A stretch of 64,000 nt of DNA from Escherichia coli (GTDB lineage Bacteria > Pseudomonadota > Gammaproteobacteria > Enterobacterales > Enterobacteriaceae), in the NCBI RefSeq assembly GCF_051903065.1, contig NZ_CP178438.1; one strand, written 5' to 3'. The translations under genes and the position numbers were made by a program. The notes below the pieces were generated by a model that saw nothing but the letters and a program-made list of their open reading frames with translations, made no database searches and was not told where the DNA came from. Shown in pieces: positions 13,104 to 56,073 of the stretch; within the stretch, counting starts at the first letter, position 1, and the number at the start of each line of letters is the position of its first letter.

Positions 13104-14498
13104 TCAATATGCCGCTTTGTTAACGAAACCTTTGAACACCGTCAGGAAAACGATTTTGATATCGAACCAGACGCTCCATTCGCGGATGTACTCAAGGTCG
13201 AACTCGACGCGTTTTTCCATTTTCTCCAGCGTGTCGGTTTCGCCACGCCAGCCGTTAATCTGCGCCCAGCCGGTAATGCCCGGTTTCACTTTATGGCGCA
13301 GCATGTAGCCTTCAATGAGCTGGCGATACTGTTCGTTATGCGCCACCGCGTGCGGACGCGGGCCAACAATCGACATCCCCCCGGTCAGCACATTGATAAA
13401 CTGCGGCAATTCATCCAGCGAGGTGCGGCGCAGAAAGTTCCCCACTTTGGTGACGCGCGGATCGTTCTGCGTCGCCTGAGTCACCACTTTGTCGTTCTCC
13501 ATCACTTTCATGGAACGGAACTTCCACACTTTGATCGGCTTGCCATCCATGCCGTAGCGAGTCTGGCGGAAAATAACCGGCCCAGGTGAACTGAGTTTCA
13601 CCGCCAGCGCAATGCAGCACAGCACCGGGGAGATCAGCAGCAGGATAAGCGTCGCCAGCACAATGTCTTCCGCACGTTTTAGCAAGCGGTTAACCCCGGA
13701 AAGTGGCGTGTCATACAGCGGCACCACCGGAACGCCGTTCATCTCTTCGAGACGTGAATGGAGAATGTTGAAGGTAAAGACGTCGGGGATCAGCAGCACC
13801 GAACAGGTAGTGTCCGCCAATTGATGGACCAGTTTTTTCACTCGCGCGCCGTCGCACATTTGCATCGCGATATAGACGTTATGAATCTTGCCTGCTTTAG
13901 CATCCTCGACCAGCTGTTGCAGGTTACCCGCCCAGTCGTTAGAAACGCCGCCCGGTTTCGGGTCGTGGTAAACGCCCACCACTTCAAACCCTAACCACGG
14001 CTGGTTACGGAAGCTCTCCATCAGCATTTGCCCGGCGGCTAAATCCCCCGCCACCGCGACCATGCGCTTGTTATAGCCATGATTACGCAGCCAGCCCGCC
14101 CCAATGCGAATACACGAACGGCAAACCACCAGTCCGATGCTGGTCAGCCCATACCACGCCAGCCAGATTTTCAGTTGCGTGTCGAAATCATTGTTGAACG
14201 CCACCAGTCCGGCGCTGAAAATCACGCTTAAGGTCCAGTTTTGTAGCAGCAGGGCAAATTCTGTCGCTGCCCGAACACCGCGCCATGAGCGATAAAAATC
14301 GGTGATGCCGCCCAGCATCTGGAACACCACCAGCGTAATCAGCGCCACCAACAGGTGCATGTAGAGGAATGACAGTCCGCTCACTTCGCAAACCAGCCAT
14401 AGTCCGGCAAACATGATGGTGATATCTGAAAAGCGTTGCACCATAGAGATTAACGATGCATTGGTTTTCGCTCGCTCGCGCTTTTTTAGATTTGTCAT
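13104..14498 (-). CDS. wcaJ: Undecaprenyl-phosphate glucose-1-phosphate transferase WcaJ
   Basis: 464-aa ORF with the C-terminal polyprenyl-phosphate sugar-phosphotransferase domain (SLDELPQFINVLTGGMSIVGPRP). Confidence 0.92.
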   Translation of the reverse strand: MTNLKKRERAKTNASLISMVQRFSDITIMFAGLWLVCEVSGLSFLYMHLLVALITLVVFQMLGGITDFYRSWRGVRAATEFALLLQNWTLSVIFSAGLVAFNNDFDTQLKIWLAWYGLTSIGLVVCRSCIRIGAGWLRNHGYNKRMVAVAGDLAAGQMLMESFRNQPWLGFEVVGVYHDPKPGGVSNDWAGNLQQLVEDAKAGKIHNVYIAMQMCDGARVKKLVHQLADTTCSVLLIPDVFTFNILHSRLEEMNGVPVVPLYDTPLSGVNRLLKRAEDIVLATLILLLISPVLCCIALAVKLSSPGPVIFRQTRYGMDGKPIKVWKFRSMKVMENDKVVTQATQNDPRVTKVGNFLRRTSLDELPQFINVLTGGMSIVGPRPHAVAHNEQYRQLIEGYMLRHKVKPGITGWAQINGWRGETDTLEKMEKRVEFDLEYIREWSVWFDIKIVFLTVFKGFVNKAAY

Positions 14499-14552
14499 CG
14501 TTGTTCCTGTTATTAGCCCCTTACCCGCAATGGGGTAAGGGAAGATCCGACA

Positions 14553-15923
14553 TTACTCGTTCAGCAACGCCAGCAGAGTTCGCGTTCGCGCTTCCATCAG
14601 CGGCACATCACCGCGTGATTCCACATTCAACCGCACCACCGGTTCGGTGTTGGAGGAGCGCAGGTTAAAGCGCCAGTCGGCAAAGGTCATGCTGATGCCA
14701 TCGGTGCGATCCACCGCCAGCGCCTCACGGCTAAAATGCTGTTCCACGCGGTTAATCGCCTCAACGGGTTGCGCCAGTTTGCTGTTGATCTCACCGCTTG
14801 CCGGAAACGCAGCCATCCGGTCGCGTACCAGTTCGCCCAGCGTTTTCTCTTTCAGGCATACCAGTTCGGCTACCAGCAACCACGGGATCATGCCGCTGTC
14901 GCAGTAAGCGAAATCACGGAAGTAATGGTGGGCGCTCATTTCGCCACCGTAGATGGCGTCTTCCTTGCGCATCCGTTCTTTAATAAAGGCGTGTCCGGTT
15001 TTCGACATTACCGGGGTGCCACCTGCGGCAGTCACCACATCAACGGTGTTCCAGGAGAGACGTGGATCGTGGATGATCTTCGCGCCGGGATTTTTTTCGA
15101 GGAATGCTTCTGCCAGCAGGCCGACAATGTAATAGCCCTCGATAAACTGCCCTTTTTCGTCAAACAGGAAACAGCGGTCAAAATCGCCATCAAAGGCAAT
15201 GCCCATATCCGCGCCGTGTTTGATGACCGCATTGCGGGTGTCGTCGCGGCATTCCGGCAGTAGCGGGTTAGGAATACCGTTGGGGAAATTGCCGTCCGGC
15301 GTGTTGTGTACTTTGATTAATTCCACCGGTGCGCCGAGGGCTTTAAATCGGGCTTCGATGGCGTCCACCACCGGCCCCGCTGCGCCGTTCCCGGAGTTGA
15401 TCACCAGCTTGAGCGGCGTGAGGTTTTTGACATTGATATAACCGAACAGGTGATCAACGTAAGCGTCACGCAGGTTGATTTGCTGATAGCGACCGCGTTT
15501 GGTTTCATCGACGGGAGGAAAGTCGTTGGCTTCAGCCAGGCGCTGGACATCGCGCAGTCCGGTATCACCGCTGATCGGGCGAGCCCCTTCGCGCACCAGT
15601 TTCATGCCGTTATAATCCATCGGGTTATGGCTGGCGGTAACTTCGATGCCGCCATCCACGCCGAGATGGAACGTGGCGAAATAAATCTCTTCGGTGCCGG
15701 ACATGCCAATATCCAGCACATCGACGCCCGCATCCTGTAAACCTTTCGCCAGCGCCAGTTTTAAGGTTTCGCTGGTGAGGCGGACATCGCCGCCTAAAAC
15801 AATGGTTTTCGGTTTAAGAAATTCGCCATAGGCGCGACCAATACGCCAGGCAATATCTTCATTCAGTTCTTCGCCTAATTTCCCGCGAATATCATAGGCT
15901 TTAAAGCAAGTTAATTTTTTCAT
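14553..15923 (-). CDS. cpsG: Phosphomannomutase
   Basis: Track ORF is 472 aa; likely true start is the ATG at 15921-15923 ([14 protein letters not shown]..., 456 aa); phosphohexomutase motifs. Confidence 0.92.
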
Positions 15924-19257: not shown

Positions 19258-20222
19258 TACCCCCGAAAGCGGTCTTGATTCTCAAGGAACCACTGGTAAG
19301 TGCTGGCAAGCCCCGCTTCCAGTGAGATTTCGTGATACCAGCCAAGCTGATGCAGGCGCGTCACATCCAGCAGTTTGCGCGGCGTACCATCCGGTTTACT
19401 GGCATCAAAAACCACCCGACCTTTGTAACCCACCACTTTGGCGATGGTTTGCGCCAGCTCGCGGATAGTGCAGTCAATGCCCGTACCGACGTTAATGTGC
19501 GACAGCATCGGCTGGGTGTTCTCCAGCCAGACTTCGTGCGCCAGCTCCATCACGTGAATGCTTGCCGCCGCCATATCATCGACATGCAGAAATTCGCGCA
19601 TCGGTGTACCGCTGCCCCACACCACCACGTCCGGTGCATTCTGTGCCGTCGCCTCGTGGAAGCGACGCAGCAATGCAGGGATCACATGCGAATTACTCGG
19701 GTGGAAGTTGTCATGCGGGCCATACAGGTTGGTCGGCATGACTGAGCGGTAATCGCGTCCATACTGGCGGTTGTAAGATTCGCACAGTTTGATCCCGGCG
19801 ATTTTGGCAATGGCGTAAGGCTCGTTGGTCGGCTCCAGCGTGCCCTGCAATAATTCGCTTTCTGCCATCGGCTGTTTTGCCAGTTTCGGGTAGATGCAGG
19901 ACGATCCAAGAAACAGCAGTTTGTTCACGTCGTTCTGATGCGCGGCGTGAATGATGTTGCTCTCAATCATCATGTTCTGGTAGATGAAATCCGCCGGGTA
20001 GGTGTTGTTGGCAACAATGCCGCCCACTTTCGCCGCCGCCAGATAGACCTGGTCAATGCTTTCGCTGGCAAAGAAATCATGCACGGCGCGGCTGTCCAGC
20101 AGGTTAAGCTCGTCGCGGGTGCGTAATACCAGTTCCACATCACCGCGCTGTTCGAGCTGCCGCCTGATGGCGGAACCGACCATCCCGCGATGGCCAGCAA
20201 TAAAAATGCGTTGTCTACTCAT
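19257..20222 (-). CDS. fcl: GDP-L-fucose synthase
   Basis: 321-aa ORF ([19 protein letters not shown]...) of the NAD-dependent epimerase/reductase family, downstream of gmd. Confidence 0.93.
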
Positions 20223-43634: not shown

Positions 43635-45584
43635 TCAGCAGCGGCTTAAATCTGCCTGCGCCTGAGCCAGTTTTTCTGCCGCCTGACGTAACGGTTCCAT
43701 CAACGGCATGGTCCGTGCTGGAGCATGAAGGCGGAATCGCTGCAACTCTGTCGCGCCGACAGTCAACGCCGATTCCAGCCGATGTCGTTTGGCGGCCATT
43801 TTCGCCATTACCGCTTGTCTTTCTGCAGGCGTTACCGCTTCGTTCGGCCTGAACACAAAACGGCGTTCACAGCTCGCTTTCCAGTCGATGACCGCCTGGG
43901 TCAGATGATCACCAAACCCTTTAACTTGCTTAACCCCACGACGGGTAACATCCGCGGCTGTTTCAATACCAAAAGACCGTAACGCCGCTTTACGCGCAGG
44001 GCCAACGCCGGGAATAGAGGCAGCATCAATAAAAAATCCCTCCAGAAACTTCTGCTTCTGCCGTTCCCTTGCAGTGTCGTGAAGTGCTGCCAGAGCACGT
44101 TTTTCTTCTTCCGGTAACCCGAGAATTTCGTCCTTCATTTTTTCGAGCATCGTCCGTTTGGCGATAAAACCTTCCAGCCCGCCCAACTGTTGGATCTGGT
44201 TGACTAAATGGTCATAGTCCATTTTCGCGCGATTAAATGCCTCACGGCGTTGCTGGATTTCTGCTTTATAAGCTTTGCTTGTCAGACTGCCAATAATCCA
44301 GATAGCCGCCAGCACAGGAACCAAAATAATATAACGCGGTTCTGCCTGAAGGCCGCAAAGCAACAGCGATAACGCTGACAGTGCGATCTCAATCAGAATG
44401 ATGTATTCGCGCCGTAACAGGCCTAAAGGAAGCGGCCTGCCAGTCGGTTGGAAATGATCGGGTAATGGCAATTGCAATGCTGGCGGTGCTACTGACGCCA
44501 TCACCATCGCCCAGACTTTCGCCAGCACAAAATCACCGCCGGTGGTAATGACCTCTTCACCGAGATCAATAAAATAGATAACGCCTTGATTATCCAGCGT
44601 ACACCACGGGCAGTCAGTCAAATGAGCGGGGTAAACATGCATTGCTGAAACGGTACATTTCTTTAACTGTTGGCGTAGAGAGTCCAGTGCCGCTACCCAC
44701 GCTTTAGCCGTCGGACGCCCCGTTGCCACGCCACTTTCCGTGAATGCCTGCTGAAACATGGCTTCAACATCGCCCGGTAACATCGACAGCGGAATAGATC
44801 GTGGCGGCGGTTTTAAACCACGCCGCTGATTATCTGACGCGTAGGCATAACGGAAATGGGCAATATCCGTCTCCAGCGCATTACCCGCATCAGAGATAAG
44901 CGGCACACCAGAATAAGGATGCCGCCCACCAAACAAGACGTGAAAAATCAGCAACGCAAGGCCAAAATTATCGTGATTTTCTGTGCGTTCAAAACCGACA
45001 AATGATGGCAAGGTTTGTAGCTCTGGCGGCGTAAAATGCGACACGCCAACTTCGCATAAATGCAACGTTCCATTGGCGTTAATCTGAAAGGAGTCGCTGT
45101 CGATCAACACCACTTTGCTGTCGCGACCTACCATAAAGCTGTTCTGGTTTACGTCACCCACGACGTGCCCGTGCTCGTGAACCGTAGCAAAAGATGAAGC
45201 AATATTACGCGCAACATAGAGTAGAAAATCCCACGCACAATGAGGGTAACTCTGGCGACGATGTGCCGGGCTATAGATCATATGAATCGGTTCTTTACCA
45301 GAAACTTTTGGCATCATAAAACCGATAACTTTTCCGCCTCGTCCACCGTGAAGCGTTGCCTGCGGCCAGGCGACATAATTCAGCAACTGTGCATCAGCTG
45401 TCGCAGCCATAAAGGCAAGTTTGTCCTGTTTTAAGGCGGGTGGCGGCGTGTGATAAATCTTAGCGACGCTATCGACAAACTCCTCGATATCATAAACCGC
45501 GCCTTCGCCACCTTTGCCCAGTTCACGGCCTGGCGTAACGCACTCACCAGTAGCAGTATATAAAGTGGGTTTCATGGTAACCAC
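43635..45584 (-). CDS. yegI: Atypical Ser/Thr protein kinase YegI (kinase-like N-terminus, TM segment, C-terminal helix-hairpin-helix region)
   Basis: 649-aa ORF; lysine-containing kinase-like N-terminal motifs; membrane segment; overlaps the downstream phosphatase gene start. Confidence 0.85.
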   Translation of the reverse strand: MVTMKPTLYTATGECVTPGRELGKGGEGAVYDIEEFVDSVAKIYHTPPPALKQDKLAFMAATADAQLLNYVAWPQATLHGGRGGKVIGFMMPKVSGKEPIHMIYSPAHRRQSYPHCAWDFLLYVARNIASSFATVHEHGHVVGDVNQNSFMVGRDSKVVLIDSDSFQINANGTLHLCEVGVSHFTPPELQTLPSFVGFERTENHDNFGLALLIFHVLFGGRHPYSGVPLISDAGNALETDIAHFRYAYASDNQRRGLKPPPRSIPLSMLPGDVEAMFQQAFTESGVATGRPTAKAWVAALDSLRQQLKKCTVSAMHVYPAHLTDCPWCTLDNQGVIYFIDLGEEVITTGGDFVLAKVWAMVMASVAPPALQLPLPDHFQPTGRPLPLGLLRREYIILIEIALSALSLLLCGLQAEPRYIILVPVLAAIWIIGSLTSKAYKAEIQQRREAFNRAKMDYDHLVNQIQQLGGLEGFIAKRTMLEKMKDEILGLPEEEKRALAALHDTARERQKQKFLEGFFIDAASIPGVGPARKAALRSFGIETAADVTRRGVKQVKGFGDHLTQAVIDWKASCERRFVFRPNEAVTPAERQAVMAKMAAKRHRLESALTVGATELQRFRLHAPARTMPLMEPLRQAAEKLAQAQADLSRC

Positions 45585-46333
45585 AGCGCCAGTGCCAACG
45601 TTTTATCATCATCGGTACGCTCGTTTACCGCCGGGCTGGACAAAAACTGCTTTAACAATTCAGGTAATAAATCGAGCTGTTCCTGCGTTGCTGCCGCCAG
45701 TCCATTGAAAAAAGGGGTAAAGAAAGGCACATGCGGAGAATTATCCAACATATTTAACGCCAGTCGCTGGATACCATCCGTAAATGCTGCAACTTTATGC
45801 ACACGCTCAGTGCTGGTGAAAGTTTCCAGTCTGGAAACAGCATCTTCATCGCTAATGAAATGCGTCATATTGGCATATTCACCCACCATCGGCGTGAGCG
45901 GCAGTTCCAGACCACGACCAAAATCCACCACTACACCGCCGTCGCCAATTTGCATAATCAATGTGCCGTTAGCCGATGAAATCAATCCCAGAAACGTGCA
46001 GGCAAAATCGCGAACTGCTAATGCTTTGGCTTCTGCCTCGGCAAAAAGTCGTTGACGAATGGTCAGTACCATATTTGTGGCGAGGACATCATTAAGCCCC
46101 AATTCACCGTCCTGTACTTTTTGCACCATAAACGCCATCGCTTCATTGACGGCGAGCTTCGCGCCTTCTCCTCCCTGCGAAACGCTACCTGCGCCATCAG
46201 CAAGGAACATCACCAGTAATGGCTGCTGGTCATTTAGCCAGGCAACCTGCATCTGGCAGGCATCCTGACAAGGTAAATCAGCGCTAATGTGCGACGTTCC
46301 AACAGCGGATGCATAAACCAGACGCCAGCTCAC
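45572..46333 (-). CDS. pphC: PP2C-family protein phosphatase PphC (YegK)
   Basis: 253-aa ORF (…[20 protein letters not shown]…) consistent with an atypical PP2C fold; operonic with yegI and yegL. Confidence 0.8.
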
Positions 46334-47315: not shown

Positions 47316-47499
47316 TTTCAGCATCCCGCTGAAATCGTCGGCTTACCTCCTTTCGCCATGCATGCAGTCTATCGCTGACTTGCGGATAAAATAGTTTCCA
47401 GTGTGATTATTGCGTAACGTCTCGCAAAGAATATTTGCTGGCAGGATCGCAGACTGCAAAGCCTGCAGATTGACAATCTGACCGTGAAGGCATACTTTC

Positions 47500-47620
47500 A
47501 GGAGTGAGGGTTGAGCGGGGTTTCCCCCGCCCTGGTAGTCTTAGTAAGCTGGCCAGCTAATGACTAAGAGCACCACGATGATGAGTAGCTTCATCATGAC
47601 CCTTTTCTTATTAAAGGATG
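47500..47620 (+). ncRNA. sibB: SibB antisense sRNA, apparently lacking its native 3-prime hairpin
   Basis: ttgaca / catact promoter-like elements at about 47471-47497; homology with the sibA copy stops near 47618. Confidence 0.45.
47541..47597 (-). CDS. ibsB: Type I toxin IbsB-like (18 aa hydrophobic peptide)
   Basis: Minus-strand translation gives MMKLLIIVVLLVISWPAY; paralogous to ibsA. Confidence 0.75.
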   Translation of the reverse strand: MMKLLIIVVLLVISWPAY

Positions 47621-47763
47621 ACAAAATAATACAAATCACTTAAAAATCATCGCATTACACGAATTTGCGGTTAAATAATAGACTACAAAGTGCGACAAAA
47701 CGCAACATATGCAGTCACTATGAATCAACTACTTAGATAGTACTAGTGACCTGTAACAGAGCA

Positions 47764-47805
47764 TTAGCGCAAGGTGATTTTTTGTCCTCTTGCGCTAATT
47801 TTTTG
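47764..47805 (+). terminator. Rho-independent terminator-like hairpin
   Basis: Perfect 10-bp stem ttagcgcaag / cttgcgctaa with a 15-nt loop, followed by tttttt. Confidence 0.35.
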
Positions 47806-47961
47806 TCATCAAACATGTCGTTCTCCAGAGAAGCATAAAGCCTTGCAATCAAGTGCAAAGCTTTGTGTACCAGAGTTTTTCCTCATCAACTACCACAAGT
47901 ATCGATCGATTGAGACTTGGATGATAGACTTCATGCCTTTCAGAACTCATTGATTACATAA

Positions 47962-48324
47962 ATGTTAAAGCTATTTGCAAAGTACACCTCGATTGGTGTG
48001 CTGAACACACTTATACACTGGGTGGTTTTTGGTGTATGTATCTATGCCGCGCATACCAATCAGGCTCTGGCAAACTTCTCAGGTTTCGTTGTGGCTGTGA
48101 GCTTTAGCTTCTTCGCGAATGCAAAATTCACATTCAAAGCATCGACTACAACGATGCGCTACATGTTATATGTCGGGTTCATGGGAACACTGAGTGCTAC
48201 TGTTGGATGGGCTGCTGATAAGTGCTCGCTTCCTCCAATTATCACTCTTATCACCTTCTCCGCCATCAGCCTGGTGTGCGGTTTCGTCTATTCAAAGTTC
48301 ATTGTCTTTAGGGATGCGAAATGA
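47962..48324 (+). CDS. gtrA: Bactoprenol-linked glucose translocase GtrA
   Basis: 120-aa small 4-TM protein of the GtrA family; start codon of the next gene overlaps its stop. Confidence 0.85.
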
Positions 48325-49241
48325 AAATATCTCTGATTGTTCCTGTCTTCAATGAAGAAGATGCGATACCAATTTTCTATAAAACGGTACGTGAATTCGA
48401 AGAGTTGAAGCCTTATGACGTCGAAATTGTATTCATAAATGACGGAAGCAAAGACGCCACGGAATCAATTATTAACGTTCTGGCTGTTTCAGATCCGCTA
48501 GTTGTTCCGCTGTCATTTACACGAAACTTTGGTAAAGAACCAGCATTGTTTGCAGGGTTAGACCATGCAACGGGCGATGCTGTTATTCCTATTGATGTTG
48601 ACCTGCAAGACCCGATTGAGGTTATTCCTCATCTGATTGAAAAGTGGCAGGCAGGTGCCGATATGGTGCTGGCAAAACGTTCAGATCGTTCAACTGATGG
48701 AAGATTAAAACGGAAAACCGCTGAGTGGTTCTATAAGCTTCACAATAAAATAAGCAATCCAAAGATTGAAGAGAATGTCGGCGATTTCCGCCTGATGTCT
48801 CGAGAGGTGGTAGAAAATATCAAACTACTGCCAGAGCGTAACCTGTTTATGAAAGGCGTTTTATCTTGGGTTGGCGGTAAGACGGATGTTGTTGAATACA
48901 TCCGTGCTGAACGCGTTGCCGGAAGCACAAAATTCAATGGCTGGAAGCTATGGAACCTGGCGCTTGAGGGAATTACAAGTTTCTCGACCTTCCCCTTACG
49001 CGTGTGGACTTACATCGGCCTACTTGTTGCGGGACTCTCGTTCCTTTACGGGGTGTGGATGATTTTCGACACATTGGTGTTCGGTAATGCTGTCCGCGGA
49101 TATCCTTCTATTCTTGTATCTATTCTCTTTTTAGGTGGCATTCAGTTAATTGGTATTGGGGTGCTGGGAGAATACATCGGCAGAATTTACGTAGAAGTTA
49201 AAAATCGTCCTAGATATGTACTTAAAAAAATAAAAGGTTAG
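48321..49241 (+). CDS. gtrB: Bactoprenol glucosyltransferase GtrB (GT2)
   Basis: 306-aa ORF with GT2 N-terminus ([11 protein letters not shown]...FINDGSKD) and two C-terminal TM segments. Confidence 0.9.
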
Positions 49242-49246
49242 AGAAT

Positions 49247-50623
49247 ATGCGCATTTCAAAAAATGAAAAATACCTTTCATTGATTATGATAGCATTTTAC
49301 TTGCCATTTTTATTATCTGATTTACCTTTTAGGGACGATCTAAGCAGGACTTATTGGGGTTTTGTTGGGTTGTCTCAATTAGGTAGACCATTGGCAGACA
49401 TTGTTTATAGTTTGGTTGGATTTGGCTATGAGGGTGTTAACCTCAGCCCTATGCCTAAAATTATAGCGCTATTAATAATATTATCGTCTGCGATATTTTC
49501 ATACAGAACGCTATTCAACTCAATAGGAGCAACCGGGTTACTCTCTTTATCTATTTTCTTTGCAAATCCATTTATTATTCAAAATTTTGCATATCAGTAC
49601 GACTGTTTTCCAATGGCTTTATCTATTTTATTGGCGACATTATCTGTATTATATAGACCAAGATCAAGCTATTTTTATTTTCTTAGCGCATCATTTTTAT
49701 TAACTAGCGCAATATCACTTTATCAAGCATCTATATTTATTGCGGCATCTTTATATTTATGTAAGATCACTATTTATTTCGTTAACGATAGAAATCGCAG
49801 AGATGTTTTTATAGAATGCATGCTTACTCTTTTGTCTTCTTTTTTCTCTATTGCATGTTACATGGTGATTTTACTTTTTGTAGAAAATGGCGTGTCAAAA
49901 CGAGCTAGCATTACAGGGCCAAGTGGCGTTATTAGCAATATCGAGTTCCTTTTGGATAGGTTAAATAGCCTTTACCACTCGGTTTATATTTTTTTTATTA
50001 TTTTGTCATTAGTATTAATATTCTCTCTCTTGAGGATTTTTATCCTAAAAAGATATATCAATTTATGCGTGATATTACTAATACTTGTTGCGCTGCTAGT
50101 CTCTTCCCTACTCCCATCTGTCATCCTTAAGGAAGGGTTCGCCGGACCAAGAGTTTTAATGTCTATTTGTTCGGTATTTATATTTATATCTATCATTGCA
50201 ACCGGAAAAGAAAAATACGTATACGCCATGGTGTTATCTGTTTTAATGATGCATTCCATGTCTATTTCATACGCATTTTCAGGTGACATTAAGGCACAAT
50301 ACGATAGATACTCGATGATATCATCTCTTGTTTATAAAGATATTGATAATTACGTGTCGTCAAATACAGCAAAAATATACATTTCTTGCAAATCAACCCC
50401 ATCACAAAGAGAGTACGTTTTCTATAAATTCAACAATCACATAGCATGGCTCAACCCAGAAGAGGCTTGGGCTATCAGGTTTTTCATAAGAAATAATGGC
50501 GAGAGCAGGGTGGTGCACTCATGGGATGAATGCTTTGATATAAATGGAGGTAAGATCGTTAAAGAAAATGCATTTTATAAAATGGTTGAAAATAAAAATT
50601 CTTACTATTTCATAATGAAATAA
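49247..50623 (+). CDS. Serotype-specific O-antigen glucosyltransferase (GtrC-type polytopic membrane protein)
   Basis: 458-aa very AT-rich, highly hydrophobic ORF immediately after gtrAB; family call is by context and composition. Confidence 0.6.
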   Translation: MRISKNEKYLSLIMIAFYLPFLLSDLPFRDDLSRTYWGFVGLSQLGRPLADIVYSLVGFGYEGVNLSPMPKIIALLIILSSAIFSYRTLFNSIGATGLLSLSIFFANPFIIQNFAYQYDCFPMALSILLATLSVLYRPRSSYFYFLSASFLLTSAISLYQASIFIAASLYLCKITIYFVNDRNRRDVFIECMLTLLSSFFSIACYMVILLFVENGVSKRASITGPSGVISNIEFLLDRLNSLYHSVYIFFIILSLVLIFSLLRIFILKRYINLCVILLILVALLVSSLLPSVILKEGFAGPRVLMSICSVFIFISIIATGKEKYVYAMVLSVLMMHSMSISYAFSGDIKAQYDRYSMISSLVYKDIDNYVSSNTAKIYISCKSTPSQREYVFYKFNNHIAWLNPEEAWAIRFFIRNNGESRVVHSWDECFDINGGKIVKENAFYKMVENKNSYYFIMK

Positions 50624-50629
50624 ATATAG

Positions 50630-50663
50630 GCGGGGGGGGGGGTAACAATCCCCCGTCTTTTTT
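50630..50663 (+). terminator. Rho-independent terminator after the gtr operon
   Basis: G-run (11 G) pairing with ccccc across a taacaat loop, followed by tctttttt, 7 bp after the gtrC stop. Confidence 0.5.
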
Positions 50664-50849
50664 GCTACGGCAAGTGATTAATCGCAACAATTGATTATTA
50701 TTTATAACAAATGCGTCATCTACCGCTATTCGGGTGACATTTTCATTCCTTATCTAAAATACAATTAAATAATTAACAAATAATTAAACGAATTGCATGA
50801 AAAATACATTACCGAAAAGTTAGAATAGTGTGCGATTGAAAGTTAATAA

Positions 50850-53381
50850 CTATATAACGGATAGCGTTCTTATGTCATTGCTAGCTGGTGATGCCATAAC
50901 TATCTGTGTTACGTTAGCGCCAGACACCGTATACGTCAGAATTACGTTACCAACGGCTCCTATATTAAAGTTTTGTTTAGCTCCTGAGGTACCTATAGCT
51001 CTGGCATTCGTTAAAGTATACGTGCTTCCCGCAGTGAATCCTGTAGCAATTACAAATTGTTGACCAACTTTAAAAGGAACTGTCATTGTTGCGGATGTTG
51101 ACTCGACAGTAGCAAACGGCAGGCCAGGCTGTTTAACCCCCGTCACATCCCAGAACTCACAGTTACGCACCAATGCTCGACCAATTAAATCGCGAGTTAC
51201 AGGGAATGTTGTCTGGTCCTGTGATAAGAATGCTCCAACAATTTGCACGTTATCGAGCGTAATATCGTGTACTGTGGCCCCATCTATAGGACTTAACGTT
51301 GGTGATGCACTCCATAATTTACCACCCTTCATTTTGATACTTACAGGCCCGTTAGGGTCTGTCCCTCTAAAAGCGCGAATACTCTCAAATTTGCAATCTG
51401 TAAATTCATAGCTGCCGCGTTGGTTAGTTTCGAACAATGTATACGCCTCACCTGACACTCCGTGTCTTACATCACTGGCAACAACGCGCGGATTATGGCG
51501 GAATGATGCAGACGTGACAGAGAAAAATGGCGCGCAGACATCGTTAATAAGAATGTCTGTTGTATAACGCCCTGTAACAGCGCTCTCAGAGTCACTCATA
51601 TCCGAATATAGCGCTTTGAAGCGGGAGAAGTCTATGTTTAGACCTATTCCTGCACTTTTTGGTAATTGTCCAAAATCAAGCCCGTCAATAACAATTTTCT
51701 TAGGGAAATAAAGGGTGTTATCTCGAGCTACAGTTATTAATGTACCCGGATAAGTCAAGACGAAACCTGGATACATTTTAACATCTTTCAAGGTAACATT
51801 ATTGAATAACGTGGGGCTTATAGGCGACCCGCTACTAGGCCCTTGCCCAGCAGTAACAGCTGCGTTTATGATACCATTTCCGGGTGCGCCGCTGCGCAGG
51901 CCAGTTAACTTAATATTCTCCATGTATAAATCACCATCGAAGCCCCCCCCCAGCGTCAGAGCGAGTCGAAATAATATTACCAGGCTTATATGGTGAAGCA
52001 TTAAATATTGAATTGGTTACATACAAATCCCCGATACCAGAAGCGACGACACCATAAGTCCCAATATTACAGTCATTTATCTTTAAGTAGTTTTGGAAAG
52101 GTCTGTGGAAATCAATTCGACTAAGATCGCATCTTTCAAACCTTATATTGGCGCAATTATTGCTGCCTGTTGCCCCCCAGCCTTTACCATTTGCCGTTGC
52201 GTTTTTGATAGTGACATCCATAGAGTTAGATAGGGTTAAGGCGTATGCGTAGCTATCAACACCATCTATTAAGGCGTTTGCTATGGCTGGCGTGTATAAA
52301 CCATCAACTGTAACATCATAGCTTTCGTTAATTTCTATCCTGATATCATTAAAGTTTTGCGTTATCGGTCTGTTAATAAATGTCGTATTAACCAAGCGAA
52401 CTCGTGATGCTTGATTAATATAAATAATTCGATAATTCTTTGTAAGACTTTCGTCTATAGTCAATCCCTTAAGGTCTGCACATCTTTGCGTATTTTAAGT
52501 GCTTTAATTGATGTTGCGTTAGTTCCTAGGGCGTACTTAAGCGGGTTTTCAATGTATCCACGGTTATATACCCTGTTGAAATCTACGCGAGTTTGATTAA
52601 CGCCATCGAAAATAAACATAGGTTGAGATGTCGATAACTGAATGAAGCAACCGTCAAGGTCGGTATTAGAAGCCAAACCATCAAGATAGTTGCTACCTAT
52701 GTCGCGAGAGCCACTGGTGGACGTATTAACTCCATTAACTGGAGCCGAACCAGAACCGTATGTAACAGGGGCGACAGGCTGGCTAATAACAATTTGCCCT
52801 TTCCATGTAGCCGATGGTTTAAGCACACACCCGGTTAAATCCACATTTAAACTTTTAATATCAAGATAAGTATCACCATCTAGTAGAAAAGTTCCGTCAG
52901 ATTGCCTAACGTCTAAATTATTTGAATAAGCATAGTTCAGTGCCTTAGCTATGGCGGGAGCGTCATTTGTTACTCCATCACCAATAGCGCCAAACTCCTT
53001 CAACGTTACCCAGTATTTTACTTTCTCCAAGCTCTTTTGATATTGATCTGGGTCGTACTTCAGCACATTAGGAAAATAGAACTGCTGCGCACCATATGCA
53101 TCATAAACAGCCATAGAGTGGCCTTGCACAGTTACGAACTTGGCAATCTGTCCGTTATATACCGGATATCCAGCAGCGTTAATGATGATTGGTTGTGAAA
53201 CAGGAACGTGAGAACCATCCTCATTCTCCACATAAATCTGAATCTGGTTTTCAGGATTTACCGGGTCAGTGTCAATTTTTCCTATATAAATTTTGCCATT
53301 GGCAACCGCTTTAAAAGAACGTGCCATAGTGAAGAGTTGCGAAGGCATGCTTACCACAACATTTGCGGTGATATCTGTCAT
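50850..53381 (-). pseudogene. P22-like phage tailspike gene disrupted by at least two frameshifts
   Basis: Three consecutive minus-strand ORFs (52461-53381, 51931-52464, 50850-52001). The first begins [43 protein letters not shown], recognised from memory as the P22 gp9 head-binding domain; the others are beta-helix-like. One frame junction sits on a 9-nt homopolymer. Confidence 0.75.
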
Positions 53382-53505
53382 TTAATTTGCTCCAGATTCA
53401 AGGAATCGCCGCAGCATGGCTACGGTGAATTTTGTGCATAAAAAACCCAGCCGAAGCTGGGTCGTTGCGTTGGTTATCTGTAAGTAGTTATGTGCTTAGG
53501 TAATT

Positions 53506-54706
53506 TGTATTAGCTCAGACCTGATCTGACAGTTACCGGTTATTTATACAGGTATCTGTCAGATTACATCCGGCTTAAATTTTTCTCGGCCCAGATGCGC
53601 TTTCCATCAAGTAACGTTTCCATTGGCGTCCGCCCATTGCGCATTTTTCCCTGATGGGTTCGTTCATTATTATAGTGAGCCAGCCACTCATCAAGATCCG
53701 ATTGCAATGTATCGAGAGCTCCATACAACTTTTTACGGAACGTCACCTGATAAAATTCGTTCAGTATCGTCTTATGGAACCGCTCGCAGATGCCATTTGT
53801 CTGCGGTGACATCGCTTTAGTTTTCGTGTGGTCTATATCATTTATTGCCAGATATAGCTGGTAGTCATGCTGTTCCACCTTACCGCAGTACTCTGTTCCT
53901 CTGTCGGTCAGTATTCTCAGCATTGGCAGGTTTTGCGATTCGTAAAATGGCAACACACGATCATTCAGCAGGTCAGCAGCCGTGATCGGTGTTTTGGTTA
54001 CATACAGTTTACAGTGTGCGACCTTCGAGTAGGTGTCAACGAACGTTTGCTGATAAATGCGTCCGACTCCTTTCAGATTACCCACGTAGAACGTATCCTG
54101 AGAGCCCAGATAACCGGGATGTGCGGTTTCGATTTCACCACACGCTTCGTCATCGCTGGCTTTACGCTCCAGAACGACTATCTGTGCTTCTGTCAGCTCG
54201 ATACCGTCACGGGCTACTTTTTCCTCCAGTGCTTTCAGCCGCTTTTTGAAGTTCTCAAGGTTATGCCGCAGCCAGACAGAACGTACACCCCTTCCTGAGA
54301 TGAAGACACCTTGCTTACGTAGCTCATTGCTGGTCCGGTGCTGGCCATGCGCAGGGTACGCGATGGCATAATCAACAACGGCCCGCTCAGTTGCATCATC
54401 GGTACGATTTTTTAGATTGGGCGTTCGTCGAGTGCGGTTAATCAGTGCATCCACCCCACCTTCATCAGCCAGTTCGCGATAACGGTAAAACGTATCACGC
54501 GAGACGCCCATGATTTTGCAGGCCTTCGAAACATTGCGGAGTTCTTCAGCCAGATTGAGCAAACCGGCTTTGTGTTTGATGACGGGATTGTTAGTATGAA
54601 GCATGAGAGTTACCTCGTGTTTTGTATAAGGATTCGACACCCATATCAAAACCGGTAACTCTCAACCTTTCAAGGCTCAGTGTCAGATCAAGTCGCGACT
54701 AATACA
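53506..54706 (-). mobile_element. IS481-like insertion sequence (about 1.2 kb) with imperfect terminal inverted repeats
   Basis: Ends tgtattagctcagacctgatctgacagttaccggtt (53506-53541) and aaccggtaact...gtcagatcaagtcgcgactaataca (54650-54706) are inverted repeats with a 20-bp insertion in the right copy; encloses one transposase gene. Confidence 0.6.
53564..54604 (-). CDS. DDE transposase (integrase-core/rve domain with N-terminal HTH), IS481-family-like
   Basis: Track ORF is 361 aa from a TTG; likely ATG start at 54604 (MLHTNNPVIKHK..., 346 aa); HTH-like N-terminus and integrase-core-like central region. Confidence 0.75.
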   Translation of the reverse strand: MLHTNNPVIKHKAGLLNLAEELRNVSKACKIMGVSRDTFYRYRELADEGGVDALINRTRRTPNLKNRTDDATERAVVDYAIAYPAHGQHRTSNELRKQGVFISGRGVRSVWLRHNLENFKKRLKALEEKVARDGIELTEAQIVVLERKASDDEACGEIETAHPGYLGSQDTFYVGNLKGVGRIYQQTFVDTYSKVAHCKLYVTKTPITAADLLNDRVLPFYESQNLPMLRILTDRGTEYCGKVEQHDYQLYLAINDIDHTKTKAMSPQTNGICERFHKTILNEFYQVTFRKKLYGALDTLQSDLDEWLAHYNNERTHQGKMRNGRTPMETLLDGKRIWAEKNLSRM

Positions 54707-54754
54707 TGTACCCGTCATTCAGACGATTCCCGACAGTGTTTCATAATTCCTCCA

Positions 54755-54772
54755 TTTTTCTCCCTTATTGGC
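54755..54772 (+). promoter_or_regulatory. BaeR-binding box of the mdtA promoter
   Basis: tttttctcccttattggc matches the published BaeR box consensus TTTTTCTCCATDATTGGC at 16 of 18 positions, about 55 bp upstream of the mdtA start. Confidence 0.5.
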
Positions 54773-54825
54773 TGGCTACACTAGTATCATTCCGCGAAAC
54801 GTTTCAGGAAGAGAAACTCTTAACG

Positions 54826-56073
54826 ATGAAAGGCAGTTATAAATCCCGTTGGGTAATCGTAATCGTGGTGGTTATCGCCGCCATCGCCGCATTCTGGTTC
54901 TGGCAAGGCCGCAATGACTCCCAGAGTGCAGCCCCAGGGGCGACGAAACAAGCGCAGCAATCGCCAGCGGGTGGTCGCCGTGGTATGCGTTCCGGCCCAT
55001 TAGCCCCGGTTCAGGCGGCGACCGCCGTAGAACAGGCAGTTCCGCGTTACCTTACCGGGCTTGGCACCATTACCGCTGCTAACACCGTTACGGTGCGCAG
55101 CCGCGTAGATGGTCAGTTGATGGCGTTACATTTCCAGGAAGGCCAGCAGGTCAAAGCAGGCGATTTACTGGCAGAAATTGACCCCAGCCAGTTCAAAGTT
55201 GCATTAGCACAAGCCCAGGGCCAACTGGCAAAAGATAAAGCCACGCTTGCCAACGCCCGCCGTGACCTGGCGCGTTATCAACAACTGGTAAAAACCAATC
55301 TCGTATCTCGTCAGGAACTGGATGCCCAACAGGCGCTGGTCAGTGAAACCGAAGGCACCATTAAGGCTGATGAAGCAAGCGTCGCCAGCGCGCAGCTGCA
55401 ACTCGACTGGAGCCGCATCACCGCACCAGTCGATGGTCGCGTTGGTCTCAAGCAGGTTGATGTTGGTAACCAAATCTCCAGTGGTGATACCACCGGGATT
55501 GTGGTGATCACCCAGACGCATCCTATCGATTTGCTCTTTACCCTGCCGGAAAGCGATATCGCTACCGTCGTGCAGGCGCAGAAATCCGGAAAACCGCTGG
55601 TGGTAGAAGCCTGGGATCGCACCAACTCGAAGAAATTAAGTGAAGGCACGCTGTTAAGCCTCGATAACCAAATCGATGCCACAACCGGTACGATTAAAGT
55701 GAAAGCACGCTTTAATAATCAGGATGATGCGCTGTTTCCCAATCAGTTTGTTAACGCGCGCATGTTAGTCGACACCGAACAAAACGCCGTAGTGATCCCA
55801 ACAGCCGCCCTGCAAATGGGCAATGAAGGCCATTTTGTCTGGGTGCTGAATAGCGAAAACAAGGTCAGCAAACATCTGGTGACGCCGGGCATTCAGGACA
55901 GTCAGAAAGTGGTGATCCGCGCAGGTATTTCTGCGGGCGATCGCGTGGTGACAGACGGCATTGATCGCCTGACCGAAGGGGCGAAAGTGGAAGTGGTGGA
56001 AGCCCAGAGCGCCACCACTCCGGAAGAGAAAGCCACCAGCCGCGAATACGCGAAAAAAGGAGCTCGCTCCTGA
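54826..56073 (+). CDS. mdtA: Multidrug efflux RND membrane-fusion protein MdtA
   Basis: Track ORF is 455 aa and starts at an ATG formed at the IS terminus (54706); conserved start is [15 protein letters not shown]... (415 aa). Confidence 0.92.

Follow-up and report, generated by a model that had tools for sequence, protein, structure and literature searches.

The window, a stretch of 64,000 nucleotides of Escherichia coli DNA, carries phage DNA between the chromosomal genes ibsB and mdtA. When the ibsB-mdtA interval is compared with the empty site in WS0115A (L004), the alignment runs to 47617 and restarts at about 54706, which delimits a 7,089-bp insertion at 47618-54706. This insertion is composed of 5,888 bp of phage DNA (47618-53505) and an IS481-family element of 1,201 bp (53506-54706). 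The features of the locus are the following (evidence in brackets):

47470..47612, plus strand: chromosomal sibB antitoxin RNA (Rfam RF00113, 133 bits, full model)
47541..47597, minus strand: chromosomal ibsB type I toxin ORF (PGAP annotation of a near-identical record; sequence; junction comparison)
47606..47617, no strand: attL core TCTTATTAAAGG (attB, attL and attR of strain 2022N21-074 compared with the window)
47618..47961, plus strand: phage arm with the region leading to gtrA (aligned with three prophages integrated elsewhere)
47962..48324, plus strand: gtrA, 120 aa, putative undecaprenyl-phosphate-glucose flippase (phrog_2224)
48321..49241, plus strand: gtrB, 306 aa, GT2 bactoprenol glucosyltransferase (phrog_841; GT2 NCBIfam matches)
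49247..50623, plus strand: gtrC-type gene, 458 aa, polytopic, serotype-specific transferase by family (PF14264; phrog_4829)
50637..50654, no strand: G/C hairpin with T runs where gtrC and the tailspike gene converge, likely to terminate transcription from both sides
50850..53381, minus strand: tailspike pseudogene in three ORFs (tblastn of the BL12 tailspike; PF09008; phrog_16586)
53444..53463, minus strand: terminator-like hairpin upstream of the tailspike, in the final phage stretch before the IS
53506..54706, minus strand: IS481-family insertion sequence, 1,201 bp (NCBIfam NF033577; inverted repeats; copies elsewhere)

In an earlier note on this DNA, an insertion of about 6 kb had been described at 47618-53505. 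The insertion is real and its left edge is exact. The right edge coincides exactly with the boundary between phage and IS, but the insertion itself continues to 54706, as the IS481-family element before mdtA had been overlooked. That reading likewise did not include the frameshifts in the tailspike gene, the attL that survives or the connection with serogroup O38. The gtrA and gtrB genes, the 458-aa ORF and the convergent tailspike gene all lie where the note had placed them.

The left edge is a true attL, in which the site-specific attachment junction survives. Its core of 12 bp, (C/T)CTTATT(T/A)AAGG, is located beside sibB/ibsB. The 3' end of sibB abuts the core, and from more than 20 nt upstream of the ibsB ATG onward the sequence is now phage DNA. 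The same attB (CCTTATTTAAGG) is occupied in strain 2022N21-074 by a complete 50-kb lambdoid prophage with a matching attL core and phage arm, and the ibsB-side junction is common to 91 of the 5,426 complete E. coli genomes. This fixes the position of a site for prophage attachment within the sibB/ibsB toxin-antitoxin locus; a literature search on prophages at ibsB/mdtA yielded nothing relevant.

The right border is formed by the IS. Its transposase is of the DDE type (ORF 53564-54649, PGAP start 54604) and scores 278.9 bits against NCBIfam NF033577, for which the cutoff is 224. The terminal inverted repeats of 26 nt (81% complementary) are intact, and copies of the IS elsewhere terminate at the same bases. 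No target-site duplication is present around the element (flanks GTAATT versus TGTACC), and 138 bp of the attB-side chromosome are absent at this border. Because the flanks differ, a target duplication is lacking and part of the chromosome is missing, it was concluded that an IS-associated deletion probably took out the rest of the prophage. Homology to the prophage of strain BL12 runs out at about 53511, where the ejection-protein gene lying upstream has its stop codon.

It could be argued that the 7-kb block was brought in whole by the IS481-family element instead of decaying in place from a prophage, as one of its borders is an IS and the block is small. However, there is a single IS copy, a target duplication is absent around both the IS and the block, and the other border is a precise attL that is identical to that of the complete prophage at the same attB. 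Arrival by IS-mediated transposition was rejected on account of this attL, and mobilisation of the block as a unit is highly improbable.

Neither P22-type virion genes (portal, gp5 capsid, gp4/gp10/gp26, ejection proteins) nor an integrase could be found in the window, and the element is thus a remnant and not a prophage. A tRNA integration target is absent from all 64,000 nt. As the earlier note had stated, integrase, tRNA and structural genes are missing; the near-identical record annotates no integrase and has the tailspike as its sole virion gene. The P22-like origin proposed in the note is supported by the full-model PF09008 match in the tailspike and by the layout. The order gtrA-gtrB-X-tailspike also ends the complete P22-like prophages of E. 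coli BL12, ET665 and C41, where portal, gp5 capsid, gp4/gp10, needle and ejection proteins are encoded near the homologous cassette. These observations support a reading of the locus as what is left of one end of a P22-like prophage, in a strain of E. coli O38, with gtrABC intact and the tailspike broken. The type of element is well known and of a common kind.

The tailspike does begin with the P22 gp9 head-binding domain, as had been claimed (Pfam Head_binding PF09008, 1-113/113, E 3.6e-67), but the gene is not intact. Two frameshifts split it into ORFs at 53381-52461, 52464-51931 and 52001-50850 (306, 177 and 383 aa). When the intact 843-aa BL12 tailspike is used in tblastn, its residues 1-305, 304-479 and 478-843 fall in frames -1, -3 and -1, and the fragments align to successive positions of phrog_16586. 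One of the frameshifts, a 1-bp deletion at about 52470, is common to independent assemblies and lies outside any long homopolymer. The other, at about 51943, is situated in a G9 homopolymer and could be a sequencing error. A G run adjoining the hairpin at 50637-50654 also differs in length among strains. Comparison of the window with 23CRST027, ECNB21-M121 and 33F4 revealed 8 variable sites in the tailspike remnant, 1 in gtrA and none in gtrB or gtrC.

The gtr genes form a tight operon adjoining the att site, with attL 345 bp upstream of gtrA. The gtrA stop and the gtrB start overlap by 4 bp (ATGA), and gtrB and gtrC are separated by 5 bp. GtrA matches phrog_2224 (small membrane protein, GtrA family) at E 1e-70 (1-120/120), the gtrA product of the same locus in L016 is recorded under PF04138, and the PGAP protein accession is identical to that of gtrA in the intact BL12 prophage. 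GtrB matches phrog_841 at E about 4e-166 (3.6e-166; 2-306/309). A scan against NCBIfam assigned neither GtrA nor GtrC nor the tailspike fragments to a family; PHROGs and Pfam were informative for these instead. The upstream region contains a terminator-like hairpin (inverted repeat, 47756-47806) and a conserved block immediately before gtrA, and is 98.5% identical to the BL12 prophage from 47832 on. A strong sigma-70 promoter match was not found upstream of gtrA. Salmonella gtr operons carry a four-GATC signature of Dam/OxyR phase variation. Here the 344 bp upstream of gtrA contain one GATC, not four, and phase variation of the Salmonella type was rejected for this reason.

The 458-aa protein in the GtrC position was recognised as a member of the GtrII family PF14264 (E 5.3e-31, 3-317/317), and not of a non-Gtr family. 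It also matches phrog_4829 (E 2.5e-44). Its homologues measure 458-463 aa, so that the window protein is of equal length, and its residues 1-320 contain at least 8 hydrophobic segments. The ORF is AT-rich, as noted before, with GC dropping to 31-35% across it. With full-length family matches for GtrA, GtrB and GtrC, the claim of an intact gtrABC is upheld at the sequence level. The AlphaFold model of GtrC (pLDDT 74.5) finds GT-C enzymes (STT3, AftA, EmbB) as its best PDB matches in Foldseek, albeit weak ones (E 1e-2, TM 0.36), and a PDB sequence search gave no match. The nearest characterised relative found is the GtrC of P22, with 32% identity over 124 residues in the N-terminal quarter. The phage collection contained no close relative (best matches at most 34% identical over partial lengths). 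Compared to a 91%-identical Enterobacter copy, gtrC has a dN/dS of 0.19, a sign of constraint on the gene.

Among the 5,426 complete E. coli genomes, this gtrC is carried by six, and 6/6 belong to serogroup O38, of which the set includes 12 genomes in total. The O38 strain NCTC9038 is without it. The six carriers have a single island at a single site and identical wzx/wzy, and the association with O38 is therefore largely one by descent. In each of the six, gtrA, gtrB and gtrC are complete reading frames. Homologues of the tailspike receptor-binding domain occur, among the E. coli matches listed, in other O38 lineages only (BL12/GS04/BHD6 and DAM/ANT). A further homologue is found in a prophage of Enterobacter hormaechei that also has a 90%-identical GtrC; E. 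hormaechei assemblies encoding this GtrC are GCA_023060285.1 and GCA_013168895.1. A structure of the E. coli O38 O-antigen could not be found in the searchable literature, including the E. coli O-antigen review.

The likely role of gtrABC is to glucosylate the O38 O-antigen. The three genes may instead be a silent or non-functional relic, younger in decay than the tailspike, in which case the antigen would not be modified in this strain. The degraded state of the rest of the element and the missing strong sigma-70 match would agree with this, as would the gtrC of some other isolates, which is split into pieces of 154 and 254 aa and hence is not always maintained. On the other hand, the ORFs are preserved in every one of the six complete genomes, gtrB and gtrC are unchanged next to a tailspike with 8 variable sites, and the gtr upstream region shares 98.5% identity with its counterpart in an intact prophage. 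A silent relic is considered unlikely.

The following course of events is proposed. A P22-like temperate phage would have integrated site-specifically at the 12-bp core beside sibB/ibsB, upstream of mdtA. The genes next to attL would have been those of its lysogenic-conversion module (gtrA, gtrB, gtrC) and, convergent with them, the tailspike gene. Later the right border would have come to be formed by an IS481-family element, and the accompanying deletion would have removed everything from just upstream of the tailspike, via int and attR, to the 138 bp of chromosome. With no virion left, the tailspike gene may then have decayed by frameshifts, while gtrABC remained intact. If expressed, GtrB would produce undecaprenyl-phosphate-glucose at the cytoplasmic face of the membrane and GtrA would flip it to the periplasmic face, where the GT-C-type GtrC would move the glucose onto a specific sugar of the O38 repeat. 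The altered antigen could in turn block the adsorption of phages with a matching O38-specific tailspike. Taken as a whole, the account of integration at sibB/ibsB, IS-linked deletion, tailspike decay and retention of gtrABC for O38 glucosylation is quite probable.

The protein in the GtrC position might nevertheless modify a target that is not the O38 O-antigen (the core, ECA or a different glycan), or take its sugar from a donor that is not undecaprenyl-phosphate-glucose. Its specificity is not readable from sequence, and the distance to P22 GtrC leaves room for such a difference. However, its partners are a canonical GtrA and GtrB, and it is co-inherited with a tailspike receptor-binding domain that, among the E. 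coli matches listed, is confined to O38 strains. We give a different acceptor or donor little credence.

We are rather doubtful about a more tentative suggestion: GtrC may define an unrecognised glucosylated sub-variant of O38, and gtrABC and the tailspike receptor-binding domain may move as a matched 'modify-and-recognise' cassette between phage morphotypes and genera (E. coli O38 and Enterobacter hormaechei). If so, an O-antigen structure would be shared by the E. coli O38 and Enterobacter hormaechei hosts.

If O38 is indeed glucosylated, the O38 lineage of six genomes would present its antigen in modified form, which bears on serotyping, on the choice of therapy phages and on the genome-based prediction of phage host range. 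The locus would also offer a clean case in which the virion genes of a prophage decay but the host retains the conversion genes that are useful to it. Nothing here alters how Gtr systems are currently understood.

The gtrABC clusters of the Shigella flexneri phages SfII, SfV and SfX and of Salmonella phage P22 display the same order, in which GtrA and GtrB are conserved and a divergent, polytopic GtrC comes third. They likewise lie beside the att site of the phage and converge with the tailspike gene. The window GtrC falls in Pfam family PF14264 (GtrII) and in the PHROG of P22-type GtrC (by its description and the P22 tblastn match). It differs in that identity with P22 GtrC is only ~32% over the N-terminal quarter and in the host antigen, which is that of E. 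coli O38.

The CPS-53 (KpLE1) element of E. coli K-12 (intS-yfdG-yfdH-yfdI at argW) is also a cryptic remnant that has kept gtrA and gtrB homologues and a third membrane protein. The window gtrA and gtrB share 82-85% DNA identity with yfdG and yfdH of many E. coli genomes. In contrast to CPS-53, the window element is inserted at sibB/ibsB-mdtA instead of argW, has lost the integrase, contains a different third gene, and possesses a tailspike pseudogene and an IS481-family border.

The complete P22-like prophage at argW of BL12 (O38) has a gtrA and gtrB that are 98.5% identical in DNA to those of the window, and a tailspike gene with homology from end to end (84% at the DNA level). In BL12, however, the tailspike is intact and accompanied by the full set of virion genes, and the GtrC slot is filled by an unrelated protein of 490 aa without a Pfam match.

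The borders of the insertion were set by aligning the window to strain WS0115A, whose ibsB-mdtA interval is empty. Chromosomal homology ends at 47617 and restarts at about 54706, and the insertion therefore comprises 7,089 bp; 138 bp of the empty site, lying between this stop and restart, are missing from the window. The left edge proposed in the earlier note (47618) is the true edge. Its right edge (53505) is the exact boundary between phage DNA and an IS481-family element, which had gone unnoticed there. With these corrections, its description of the locus as a degraded P22-like prophage remnant holds: a P22-like tailspike gene and a phage attachment core are present, and the other phage parts are absent.

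Features of the island (gtr genes from the ORF listing)
47606-47617: attachment core, TCTTATTAAAGG
47962-48324: gtrA, 120 aa
48321-49241: gtrB, 306 aa
49247-50623: third ORF, in the GtrC position, 458 aa
53381-52461, minus strand: tailspike ORF 1, 306 aa
52464-51931, minus strand: tailspike ORF 2, 177 aa
52001-50850, minus strand: tailspike ORF 3, 383 aa
53506-54706: IS481-family element, 1,201 bp, right border of the island

GtrA matches the phage GtrA family phrog_2224 over its whole length (E 1e-70), and GtrB matches the GtrB family phrog_841 (E 4e-166). The GC content is 31-35% over the third ORF, against about 50% in the flanks. Its 458-aa product aligns to the entire Pfam model PF14264 (Glucosyl transferase GtrII, E 5.3e-31) and to the GtrC-like phrog_4829 (E 2.5e-44). 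Within its first 320 residues at least eight segments are hydrophobic, and the C-terminal domain that comes after them is hydrophilic. The few homologues are all 458-463 aa long, and the ORF is therefore full-length. Judged by sequence, the three genes have every feature of a Gtr system, which bears out the intact gtrABC of the earlier note. Minor support for a GT-C identity may be drawn from the AlphaFold model (pLDDT 74.5, pTM 0.78), whose best PDB matches are the GT-C glycosyltransferases STT3, AftA and EmbB, at weak scores (E 1e-2, TM 0.36). The closest phage-encoded relative found is the GtrC of P22, with only 32% identity over 124 residues; the specificity of the 458-aa protein cannot be assigned by analogy with a studied enzyme.

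The tailspike gene is a pseudogene. Its first ORF bears the P22 gp9 head-binding domain (PF09008, 1-113/113, E 3.6e-67), and the three ORFs match successive positions of a single tail-protein PHROG. When the intact 843-aa tailspike from the P22-like prophage of strain BL12 was mapped onto the window, residues 1-305 fell in frame -1, residues 304-479 in frame -3 and residues 478-843 again in frame -1, revealing two frameshifts. The first, at about 52470, is a 1-bp deletion outside any long homopolymer and is real, since the independent assembly of ECNB21-M121 has the same deletion. The second falls within a run of G whose length is G9 in the window, G8 (frame restored) in ECNB21-M121 and G10 in 33F4; it may stem from slippage or from sequencing error. 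Whichever way it arose, the gene is broken, and no virion is left to which its product could attach. Two G/C homopolymer tracts (50631-50640 and about 51935-51943) differ in length between near-identical strains, one having 7 extra G in 33F4 and the other occurring as G8, G9 and G10 in different strains; they are either hypermutable or the site of long-read assembly errors.

Several observations suggest that gtrABC is being retained. In each of the six complete genomes that have the island, the gtr genes are full-length, and the six gtrC sequences are 100% identical. A comparison of the window with three of these genomes (23CRST027, ECNB21-M121 and 33F4) gives 8 variable sites in the tailspike remnant, 1 in gtrA and none in gtrB or gtrC (p ~0.02 by a simple binomial estimate on small numbers, for regions of similar length). 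Compared with a 91%-identical copy in Enterobacter hormaechei, gtrC shows a dN/dS of 0.19. In some draft genomes gtrC is broken into 154- and 254-aa products, and its maintenance is therefore not universal.

The left border was traced with a 261-bp junction query, made up of ibsB and the first 143 bp of the insertion, which was covered in 91 of 5,426 complete genomes. In one of these, 2022N21-074, the same junction opens a complete 50-kb lambda-like prophage ending in xis-int beside mdtA. Comparison of attB, attL and attR in this strain gave the core CCTTATTTAAGG for attB and attR and CCTTATTAAAGG for attL. The window core has the attL form and is followed by the same phage arm, from which it follows that the island began as a lambdoid prophage integrated site-specifically here. 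The sibB/ibsB-mdtA interval is a recurrent lambdoid attachment site with the core CCTTATT(T/A)AAGG (window 47541-47617; 20078-20149 in the 2022N21-074 locus, L007; 30141-30212 in a further comparison locus, L009); a literature search on prophage attachment there gave nothing on the site. The core begins 9 nt upstream of the start codon of ibsB, where the SibB match has its 3' end; integration therefore cuts this toxin ORF off from its native upstream sequence and leaves SibB intact. In the 2022N21-074 prophage, the cargo position held by gtrABC in the window is occupied by retron Eco8 (reverse transcriptase and effector endonuclease, L007 20802-24192). The window also belongs to a lineage without annotated yegJ between yegI and pphC (about 45572-45600); yegJ is annotated there in 2022N21-074, and beside pphC at the edge of the WS0115A locus (L004).

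Complete P22-like prophages at other sites (torT, ybhB, argW) have the gtr cluster and a convergent tailspike gene immediately within the att junction; the genes for ejection, needle, capsid and portal proteins come next. The region upstream of gtrA is conserved among these prophages. In the window, the phage DNA ends just beyond the tailspike's upstream terminator, at the position that in BL12 marks the end of the preceding ejection-protein gene. There the IS481-family element begins; its transposase scores over the NCBIfam cutoff, it has 26-nt terminal inverted repeats, and other E. coli copies terminate at the same bases. Its flanks are unlike, GTAATT next to the phage DNA and TGTACC towards mdtA, and there is therefore no target duplication. 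The IS border, the phage-DNA endpoint and the missing 138 bp of chromosome fit an IS-associated deletion. Such an event would have taken some 35-40 kb (a size estimated from typical P22-like genomes), including virion genes, early genes, xis, int and attR. A stretch of 120 bp (54707-54826) separates the end of the element from the mdtA start codon, and 138 bp of normal upstream sequence are deleted; the lineage could therefore differ in its regulation of mdtABCD-baeSR.

The chromosome of E. coli 23CRST027 (NZ_AP045789.1) is nearly identical to the region, with 2 mismatches in 8 kb. The window start falls within the O-antigen gene cluster of that strain, in which wzx and wzy carry O38-family annotations; the host serogroup is therefore O38. 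O38 wzx/wzy occur in only 12 of 5,426 complete genomes, and all six complete genomes carrying the window's gtrC are among these 12. This association is largely by descent, because one island and identical wzx/wzy are common to all six. The O38 O-antigen structure was not found in the searchable literature.

A more telling link to O38 is the tailspike receptor-binding region, whose E. coli homologues, among the matches listed, are confined to other O38 lineages, either in a full P22-like prophage at argW (BL12, GS04, BHD6) or in another IS-ridden remnant at sbcB (DAM, ANT). The tailspike is thus probably specific for O38, and the GtrC beside it would, as is usual for converting phages, modify the same antigen. 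The remnant in DAM, a decayed prophage end in a different O38 lineage (L014 2871-9788), contains an acyltransferase-family gene, a 471-aa hypothetical protein and the receptor-binding homologue, bracketed by IS1 copies, and parallels the window in keeping O-antigen-related cargo.

Modular exchange of gtr and tailspike segments is typical of these phages. The BL12 prophage and the window have gtrA, gtrB and the tailspike in common, but the GtrC slot of BL12 (13411-14883 in its locus, L003) encodes an unrelated 490-aa membrane protein without a Pfam match; this protein may be a second O38-modifying enzyme. The exchange points lie at the 3' ends of gtrB (49189) and of the tailspike gene (50920). 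The stretch from gtrA to the tailspike receptor-binding domain (47899-52997) has 82% DNA identity to E. hormaechei prophages (L010 8654-13744), in which the tailspike carries a different N-terminal adaptor (PF18668) and the neighboring tail genes are not P22-like. The occurrence of the cassette in both genera suggests that those E. hormaechei strains have the same O-antigen or a similar one.

Salmonella gtr promoters are Dam/OxyR phase-variable; the window differs in having a single GATC upstream of gtrA. As a whole, the element is analogous to CPS-53 of K-12, likewise a remnant. Elements of this kind are already known, and this new member adds a predicted O-antigen-modifying GtrC from the rare serogroup O38.
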